DNA of 64,000 nt from contig ML996690.1 of the NCBI GenBank assembly GCA_010356995.1, positions 1 through 64,000 of the forward strand. Direction: 5' to 3'. Each line of letters begins with the position of its first letter. Positions within the stretch are counted from its first letter, which is position 1. A program made the translations under genes and the position numbers. The DNA comes from Trichodelitschia bisporula (Eukaryota). This document shows positions 60,137 to 61,247 of this stretch, in pieces. The notes below the pieces were generated by a model that had not been told where the DNA came from, searched no databases, and was given only the letters and a program-made list of their open reading frames with translations.

Positions 60137-61247
60137 TTAATCGGTCGCGTCGATGGCGAAATCCTGTTCGACGATACCATTAAGGAAACGGTCGATGGCG
60201 CCGAAGCAACGCTCTTCGATCTCCTAGATCCACATCAGCTTCACCAAACGGCATAAACCCAAACCCACTGACCATTTCAACTAATATCTCTCGAGCAAGC
60301 ATGATGTCGTCGAGATCGCAATGCTCAACCTCCTTTATTCACATCAGCTCAATCTAGCGGCACGACCCCGAGTCCACTCACCACTTCAAATGACATCCCC
60401 TCATCCAGCATAATGCCGTCAACGCGGCAATATTCGTCCTCCTGGATCCACATGAGCTCCGTCCAGCGGCATAAACCCGAACCCACTCACCACTTCAATT
60501 AACATCTCTCGATCAAACATGATGTCGTCGACACCACAATGTTCAACCTTCTAAATACACATCAGCTCCATCCAGCAGCATTACCCGAACCCACCCACCG
60601 CTTCCGGGGACGTCCATCCATTGGGCATCATGGAGTCAACACTGCGATATTCGCCCTCCTGATACATATCACCTCCATCGAACGGCATGCAACCAAACCC
60701 CTCCATCACCTCATATGACGCCCCCCGGCTGGCCGCGGCATGGGCGTCAAGAGCATCGAAGACGATATCGGGGATCTGGTTTTGCTGGACAGCCTACTCC
60801 ACATAAGCTCATCCAACCGCAAAAAGTCCTCCCACTCACCCTCTCCGGCGTCCCCAAATCATGCACAGCACACGGCCTGTCCGGCGCCCCAATCCACAGC
60901 CGCGCCCGGCAAGGCCAGTCCAAACGTCCCAGTTCCGCCTCATCCATCATGACAAGCTCACTCTGAGGCGAGATCGAACTATACCCGCTGTCGCGTCGCT
61001 CGAGAACAACGATACCGGGACTTTCAAGAGCAAGTTTGACGACCGCATTAGCTTTCTCGGCTGGAGACGGGAGCTTGACACACCCGCAGTGGCGCGTGGT
61101 GAAGGGGATGGTGTCGAGGAGGGCTATGGTCATGTCGACGCGCATCCGGGACTGCTTGGAACATGCTTCTCCCCATTGACAGCAGTAAAGGAGGTGCTCG
61201 TACTTGCTTGCGCAGGACGTGCAGTGCAACTCCACGGCACGGCACAT
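60137..61247 (-). CDS. Hypothetical protein with Cys-rich N-terminus and a C-terminal array of 20-aa acidic exon repeats
   Basis: Predicted exons 61247-60840, 60793-60599, 60550-60491, 60441-60382, 60332-60273, 60223-60137; all introns phase 0 GT..AG; spliced frame open to TAA. Confidence 0.7.
60224..60710. repeat. ~109-bp tandem repeat, ~4.5 copies, unit = intron + exon
   Basis: cacatcagc-like anchor at 60231, 60340, 60449, 60558, 60665. Confidence 0.85.

Follow-up and report, generated by a model that had tools for sequence, protein, structure and literature searches.

A probable orphan gene of Trichodelitschia bisporula whose acidic C-terminal half appears to have grown by tandem duplication of a 109-base-pair intron-exon unit

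The DNA considered here is a 64,000-nucleotide (nt) stretch of contig ML996690.1 of Trichodelitschia bisporula, positions 1 to 64,000, referred to below as the window. Its long open reading frames (ORFs) include a Cdc23/APC8, a P450, an HsbA-family protein and a DnaJ-X protein, a fungal content according to Pfam. On the minus strand of positions 60137-61247 lies a gene of this dung fungus, a member of the class Dothideomycetes, in which a non-repetitive first exon is followed by a 109-base-pair (bp) tandem array of intron-like and exon-like pieces. The gene is already present in the public annotation as a 291-amino-acid (aa) ‘hypothetical protein EJ06DRAFT_519723 [Trichodelitschia bisporula]’, exactly equal to the window translation; a preliminary description of this DNA had stated that the ORF track does not show the array, which is true of the raw ORFs only. 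What that description states about the sequence itself was reproduced, and its interpretation is supported in part. The gene is probably a lineage-restricted orphan that codes for a protein, and the acidic C-terminal half of its product was probably built by repeated duplication of a 109-bp segment made of an intron and an exon. We infer its transcription and splicing, the sequence in which the duplications took place and any role of the protein. HsbA-family and ZZ/EF-hand genes are neighbours of the locus. The predicted parts are as follows, the six intron-like copies being labeled I0, I1p and I2 to I5.

61247 (ATG) to 60139-60137 (TAA), minus strand: whole coding region of the putative orphan gene, an open frame after removal of five GT..AG copies
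60840..61247, minus strand: exon 1, 136 aa, non-repetitive and Cys-rich, beginning at the first ATG of the frame
60794..60839, minus strand: I0, 46 nt, GTGAGT..GCTTAT..TAG, the most diverged intron copy
60707..60793, minus strand: exon 2, 87 nt (29 aa), a degenerate 60-nt exon copy enlarged by an insertion of 27 nt
60659..60706, minus strand: I1p, 48 nt, ATGGAG..GGTGAT..CAG, in frame and without a stop
60599..60658, minus strand: exon 3, 60 nt, more diverged than any other unit exon
60551..60598, minus strand: I2, 48 nt, GTGGGT..GCTGAT..TAG, its retention leading to a stop after 5 codons
60491..60550, minus strand: exon 4, 60 nt
60442..60490, minus strand: I3, 49 nt, GTGAGT..GCTCAT..CAG
60382..60441, minus strand: exon 5, 60 nt
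60333..60381, minus strand: I4, 49 nt, GTGAGT..GCTGAT..AAG (unusual acceptor), its retention leading to a stop after 10 codons
60273..60332, minus strand: exon 6, 60 nt, 83% identical to exon 4
60224..60272, minus strand: I5, 49 nt, GTCAGT..GCTGAT..TAG, the C at position +3 of the donor being unusual
60137..60223, minus strand: last exon, 28 aa plus TAA, with a blastn match to 60268-60194
61247-60840, 60784-60599, 60550-60491, 60456-60382, 60332-60273, 60223-60140, minus strand: exons of the public model EJ06DRAFT_519723, an exact translation match

Tandem Repeats Finder (TRF) reports a single array at 60221-60604, with a period of 109, 3.5 copies, 73% matches, 1% indels and a score of 353. 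This is the top score among the seven TRF rows of the whole window and the only period in it that is not divisible by three (the others are 27, 39, 30, 21, 42 and 18). The blastn self-matches at offsets of ~109 and ~218 have expectation (E) values of 3e-37 to 4e-49, far past chance, and in the same self-comparison no copy of the unit is found outside the array within the 64-kilobase (kb) window. Each unit consists of an intron-like piece of 48-49 nt and exactly 60 nt of open frame on the minus strand, the anatomy proposed earlier for 60137-60839. The four unit exons are each exactly 60 nt long, in phase 0 and stop-free, with the translations given before. The array also reaches further than had been described, with degenerate unit copies on both flanks: alignment to the 60-nt exon family places among its members the 87-nt exon at 60793-60707 and the initial ~60 nt of the last exon. 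The six intron-like pieces form one family, in which I2 to I5 are mutually 69-83% identical; the intron at 60794-60839, previously called related, belongs to it as well (I0 is 64-70% identical to I2-I5). The TRF array, the unit anatomy, the copy alignments, the self-matches and the unit identities all support the suggested multiplication of an intron by intragenic duplication, and with it an origin of the array by tandem duplication of a unit composed of an intron-like piece and a 60-nt phase-0 exon.

A higher-order repeat of 218 bp had also been proposed, and here the evidence is divided. Identity in the blastn self-alignments is 75.5-80.2% at offset 218 and 70.3-72.2% at offset 109, and whole-unit identities are 0.81 and 0.69 for alternate pairs and 0.55-0.76 for adjacent ones; units 2 and 4 are 81% identical, with a local support of 0.84. 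However, the intron parts taken alone do not alternate, their best pair being the adjacent I2-I3 (0.83), and a period of 218 is not reported by TRF. The two-unit repeat is thus only modestly supported by these comparisons. The window’s other tandem repeats scoring at least 80 lie at 2185-2266, 12235-12319, 19280-19372, 19775-19860 and 55861-55906, with periods of 27, 39, 30, 21/42 and 18; periods divisible by three are the expectation for in-frame coding repeats.

In the short spliceosomal introns of filamentous ascomycetes, the donor resembles GTRNGT and the acceptor is YAG, with a branch motif similar to CTRAY a short distance before it. In the array, five of the six intron copies begin with GT and end with AG, while the copy at 60706-60659 starts with AT. 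Among these five, the donor is GTGAGT three times, GTGGGT once and GTCAGT once; the branch motif is CTGAT in three copies, CTCAT in one and CTTAT in one; and the acceptors are TAG (three), CAG (one) and AAG (one). Most copies match the consensus, and the deviating signals are the GTCAGT donor, the AAG acceptor and the CTCAT and CTTAT branch motifs. For comparison, 12 plausible introns were picked by hand, without independent confirmation, from 427 raw frame-aware candidates elsewhere in the window (~50 after a signal filter). They measure 42-91 nt (11 of 12 are at most 65 nt), with donors that include GTGAGT, GTGGGT, GTGTGT and GTAAGT and branch motifs that include CTAAC, CTGAC and CTGAT. The array introns, 46-49 nt long and with a CTGAT-type branch motif ~11 nt before the acceptor, fall within the range of this set. 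The frame-aware list replaced a strict intron-pattern scan of the window, whose nine matches, compared with six in the reversed control, were too few for calibration.

With the five GT..AG copies taken out and 60706-60659 left in place, 289 codons can be read without a stop between the ATG at 61247 and the TAA at 60139-60137. Retention of any one of the five brings a stop within 5-30 codons. We infer from these signals that five of the six copies are spliced, giving a protein of ~289 aa. The phase-0 exons had further been thought open to combinatorial skipping, an idea that comes from the arithmetic of their 60 nt and is unsupported. The mode said to dominate in fungi is intron retention rather than exon skipping (PMC12861292, PMC6142364).

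Does this frame look like a coding frame? The training set for a codon-usage score consisted of eight confident long ORFs of the window (5135 codons), and random ORFs from second-order-Markov sequences served for comparison. At 0.135 bits per codon, the full model resembles the training genes (0.17 +/- 0.09), whose off-frames score -0.30 +/- 0.09. None of the 287 random ORFs of at least 200 codons reaches this value or the 0.118 of the non-redundant part, their maximum being 0.04; the 0.02 bits per codon of exon 1 is reached by 1.9% of the 1767 random ORFs of at least 136 codons. The proposed frame is the best of the six in seven of eight segments, the last exon being the exception (0.459 for an antisense frame and 0.431 for the proposed one). 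GC content at codon positions 1/2/3 is 0.62/0.41/0.65 in the model and 0.60/0.46/0.68 in the training ORFs. The plus-strand ORFs that lie over the array (e.g., 60523-60966, 147 aa) were rejected as antisense shadows, the reverse frames scoring lower in seven of eight segments.

The public model EJ06DRAFT_519723, made independently, uses the same five donors as the preliminary description and three of its five acceptors, and it keeps I1p as coding sequence. The differences concern I0, whose acceptor is placed 9 nt later, at 60785, to give a 55-nt intron, and I3, which ends 15 nt earlier, at 60457, and is left with 34 nt, lacking a branch motif and ending in GAG. The 34-nt version of I3 is probably a mis-call: the acceptor at 60442 is favored because of the alignment with the sister introns and the 42-nt minimum among the window’s plausible introns. 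Both public acceptors look like annotation errors, or else alternative acceptors, and a by-product of the analysis is a probable correction of these two sites. The T. bisporula genome was annotated by the pipeline of the sequencing centre (PMC7082219), and introns go unmentioned in the available part of that genome paper. Further literature naming the species is concerned, judging by its titles, with taxonomy, ecology or an unrelated enzyme family.

Two other intron-like stretches touch this gene. At 61305-61347 on the minus strand, ~60 nt upstream of the start codon, there is a 43-nt canonical-looking intron (GTGAGT..CTCAC..CAG) that is unrelated in sequence to the repeated introns and could be an intron of the 5' untranslated region (UTR). 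Inside exon 1, at 61021-61083 on the minus strand, a 63-nt in-frame stretch (GTGTGT..GCTAAT..AAG) is coding in the public model; it could be a further intron, the frame being kept whether it is removed or retained.

The Cys-rich N-terminus noted earlier is real, with cysteines at residues 2, 9, 12, 22, 23, 29, 54, 56, 113 and 126 (10 in 136 aa). The C-terminal 155 aa have an isoelectric point of 4.05 and contain 39 Asp+Glu, 12 Met, 5 Cys and 3 His. From composition only, one might guess at a disordered acidic tail whose Cys, His and Met side chains hold metal ions. The protein matches no Pfam family at E <=0.01, and a TEX15 match at E 0.032 was dismissed as chance level. A phmmer search with exon 1 against 1.84 billion representative proteins gives two matches, of which its own record is the only real one. 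The other, a 2903-aa bacterial-type repeat protein (E 3e-10), was set aside because its phmmer score was judged to be inflated by repeats; its best single pairwise alignment has 26.6 bits and 29% identity. A word-index search with the full protein among candidates of 160-510 aa finds only the protein itself among 826, and one with residues 137-291 against proteins of 511-2000 aa finds no relative among 208 candidates. In Atlas, the best feature score is 0.81, under the lead level of 0.9, and the structural template modeling (TM) scores are all <=0.32. Neither structure prediction gives a confident fold: the mean predicted local distance difference test (pLDDT) value is 37.6 for AlphaFold2 (AF2) from the single sequence and 0.36 for the Atlas model.

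How could such an array arise? The 3' half of the ancestral gene would have held one or more short introns of the ordinary spliceosomal kind. Unequal recombination or slippage would then have duplicated a 109-bp segment spanning the whole intron (ancestrally 49 nt) and a 60-nt exon. A new copy would be spliceable at once and add 20 residues with the frame intact, because it brings its own donor, branch motif and acceptor and an exon that is a multiple of three. Repetition of this step, probably with a final two-unit (218-bp) duplication, would lead to the six intron copies, which would subsequently diverge by drift, the older copies at both ends of the array having decayed. Among I1p to I5, three of the five copies are 49 nt long, and the deletions in the two 48-nt copies do not coincide; the ancestral unit would therefore have been 109 nt, a length that cannot be amplified as a pure coding repeat.

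Several observations weigh against a protein-coding gene grown in this way. The exon copies, 53-83% identical, are no better conserved than the intron copies at 69-83%, and their differences are spread evenly over the codon positions (e.g., 10/8/7, 6/7/6 and 5/2/3). The youngest pair, exons 4 and 6, has a ratio of non-synonymous to synonymous substitution rates (dN/dS) of 0.88 (2 synonymous vs. 8 non-synonymous differences), and pairs with exon 3 have ratios of 0.63-0.86; values of 0.19 and 0.28 appear only in two older between-type pairs, on ~11 synonymous sites. Purifying selection on the repeated exons is not supported. The GTCAGT donor and the AAG acceptor are unusual signals in two copies, and the splice signals and open frame of the copies are not independent observations, because all copies descend from one unit. 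Exon 1 alone sits at the low edge of real genes (0.02, with a training minimum of -0.021), the protein is without relative, family or confident fold in the searches made, and the public model, which contains the implausible 34-nt intron, may be purely ab initio. It is possible, if rather unlikely, that the array is a neutral 109-bp minisatellite within a spurious or decaying gene model. A GTGAGT..CTGAT..YAG pattern and a 60-nt stop-free stretch would then have arisen by chance and been inherited by the copies, and the open spliced frame would be a by-product picked up by an ab initio gene finder and by the preliminary description. Equal substitution rates in exon and intron parts without a third-position excess, the dN/dS near 1 of the youngest exon pair, the orphan state of the protein, the 34-nt intron and the shared descent of the copies would all fit such an origin. 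However, the codon scores of the full model and of its non-redundant part exceed those of all 287 long random ORFs, and the frame that scores best in seven of eight segments does so in the non-repeated exon 1 and in exon 2 as well. The array is moreover in frame with a 136-codon ATG-initiated exon, and stays in frame through the 48-nt donor-less copy. Finally, indels and stops are confined to the intron parts: I1p-I5 (243 nt) have two 1-nt indels (I1p, I2) and several in-frame stops (I2, I4), and the four 60-nt exon copies (240 nt) have neither. Free divergence of exons alongside introns, named beforehand as the pattern that would refute the proposal, is present for substitutions but not for indels and stops. 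The exon copies show no constraint other than this lack of indels and stops, and by a rough estimate about one neutral case in 20-50 would match it.

Two further explanations concern the origin of the repeated introns. The ancestral unit might have been fully coding, with 108 nt (36 aa), I1p keeping the ancestral state and the 48-nt stretch having become an intron in the other copies. Several intron copies give, in frame, a similar peptide of the type V-S-G-F-G-F-M-P, I1p is open and scores as coding (0.071), and the intron copies are unusually well conserved, all points in favor of such an intronisation. We nevertheless consider it improbable: 49 nt is the parsimonious ancestral length on the counts and deletions described above, and the outermost and most diverged copy, I0, has a canonical GTGAGT..TAG, so that the splice signals predate the diversification of the array; intronisation would in any case need to precede most of the duplications. 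The remaining candidate is a mobile introner-like element of the type reported in Dothideomycetes, inserted several times, for which the host class and the mutual homology of the copies would speak. Introner-like elements of Dothideomycetes occur as near-identical copies dispersed in unrelated genes, are longer than regular introns and have an unusually stable RNA structure. Here, in contrast, the copies are confined to a strict 109-bp tandem register with the exon, the window having none outside the array, their 46-49 nt do not exceed the length of the other plausible introns, and the RNA fold z-scores of -0.82 to +0.52 in six of six folds reveal no unusual stability. Such insertions therefore appear very improbable, and duplication of a pre-existing intron together with its exon is the explanation we favor.

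The donor-less copy at 60706-60659, I1p, had been described as exonised. In comparison with its sister introns, ATGGAG replaces the donor and GGTGAT the branch motif, so that the branch C is lost; the copy is in frame and open, and as 16 codons it has a score of 0.071, the best of its six frames and weakly coding. These elements of the claim stand. However, a GTGATG donor at 60709, 3 nt upstream, would define a 51-nt in-frame intron whose removal keeps the frame equally well and gives a stop-free protein of 272 aa. I1p may be read as 16 codons or removed from the shifted donor, two readings that the sequence does not tell apart. A conversion would have involved the loss of the donor (GTGAGT to ATGGAG), the loss of the branch C and a 1-nt deletion, from 49 nt to an in-frame 48 nt. 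It is tempting to go further and to see a young, possibly de novo gene that grows by cassette iteration, with I1p recording the conversion of an intron into an exon, but this is doubtful. If true, the locus would offer a datable case from nature in which an intron was exonised and an orphan protein grew module by module, in an organism whose splicing works by intron definition.

Ciliates, spiders and genome-wide surveys have already furnished examples of the mechanism and of comparable architectures, and no new question is opened by the present case. Internal gene duplication was reportedly treated by Gao and Lynch in 2009 as a source of introns, a pre-existing intron being copied along so that intron number goes up. 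The array here would share this carriage of a whole intron, and differs from that work in being iterated, with six copies of which one is donor-less. Introns from tandem arrays in human genes are said to have been described by Zhuo et al. in 2007, each unit with splice sites giving rise to multiple introns. Those arrays reportedly lie mostly within introns or UTRs and yield alternative introns, whereas here the unit adds a frame-preserving coding exon.

Closer in anatomy are the leucine-rich repeat (LRR) genes of Tetrahymena, described as arrays of units of a 90-bp exon and an intron and attributed to unequal crossing-over (PMC6564038). As reported there, they share with the T. bisporula gene an intragenic tandem repeat at the nucleotide level, a unit of a fixed-length, multiple-of-three exon plus an intron, one intron phase throughout, unequal crossing-over as the proposed mechanism and the status of young, species-specific genes (PMC6564038). 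The scale and details differ: about six units in one gene here compared with thousands of genes there, and a 60-nt phase-0 exon here compared with a 90-nt phase-2 exon there (PMC6564038). In addition, the present gene has a minimal 49-nt intron, no known domain and a fungal rather than a ciliate host, and there is no associated retrotransposon in the T. bisporula window. Iterated, homogenised introns, in some genes with an alternating two-intron pattern, are described from the silk genes of spiders, namely Argiope MaSp2 and the flagelliform spidroins (PMC9779670). Repetitive exon-intron pairs within one gene, with introns at least as alike as exons, are common to both (PMC9779670), and the alternating pattern resembles the 218-bp pattern here, for which support is weak. 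However, the silk genes are huge and strongly homogenised, with a mean protein identity of 93.5% (PMC9779670), while the copies here are 53-83% identical and show no sign of ongoing homogenisation.

In the model of Rogers (Hellsten et al. 2011), tandem duplication of an AGGT-containing exonic segment creates a new intron of exon sequence between the AGGT copies (PMC3443670). New introns by way of tandem duplication are what it has in common with the present proposal (PMC3443670). It was ruled out for this locus: blastn finds self-similarity only at unit offsets and no similarity of intron to exon, and the junctions are GTG|GTGAGT and YAG|GAG, not AG|GT duplicates. What has been copied at this locus is an intron and not exon sequence, which makes the model inapplicable.

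If transcripts confirm the proposed structure, the locus would be a compact natural case, easy to assay, of a tandem duplication that spans a short intron and adds introns and protein modules together, and it would also reveal the fate of a duplicated intron after loss of its donor. The gene illustrates how orphan genes can lengthen.

Elsewhere in the window, the minus strand of 45960-50849 has an ORF of 1629 aa with a PGAP1-like/alpha-beta hydrolase N-terminus, a NACHT-type nucleoside triphosphatase (NTPase) domain (NPHP3_N, E 1e-45), a winged-helix and a WD40/beta-propeller region, an architecture of the fungal NOD-like receptor (NLR) type. At 57526-59006, long ORFs overlap on both strands (212 aa on the plus strand, 221 and 302 aa on the minus strand), with Pro/Ser/Thr-rich translations; the ORF at 58001-58666, the only one scanned in this region, has no Pfam match.

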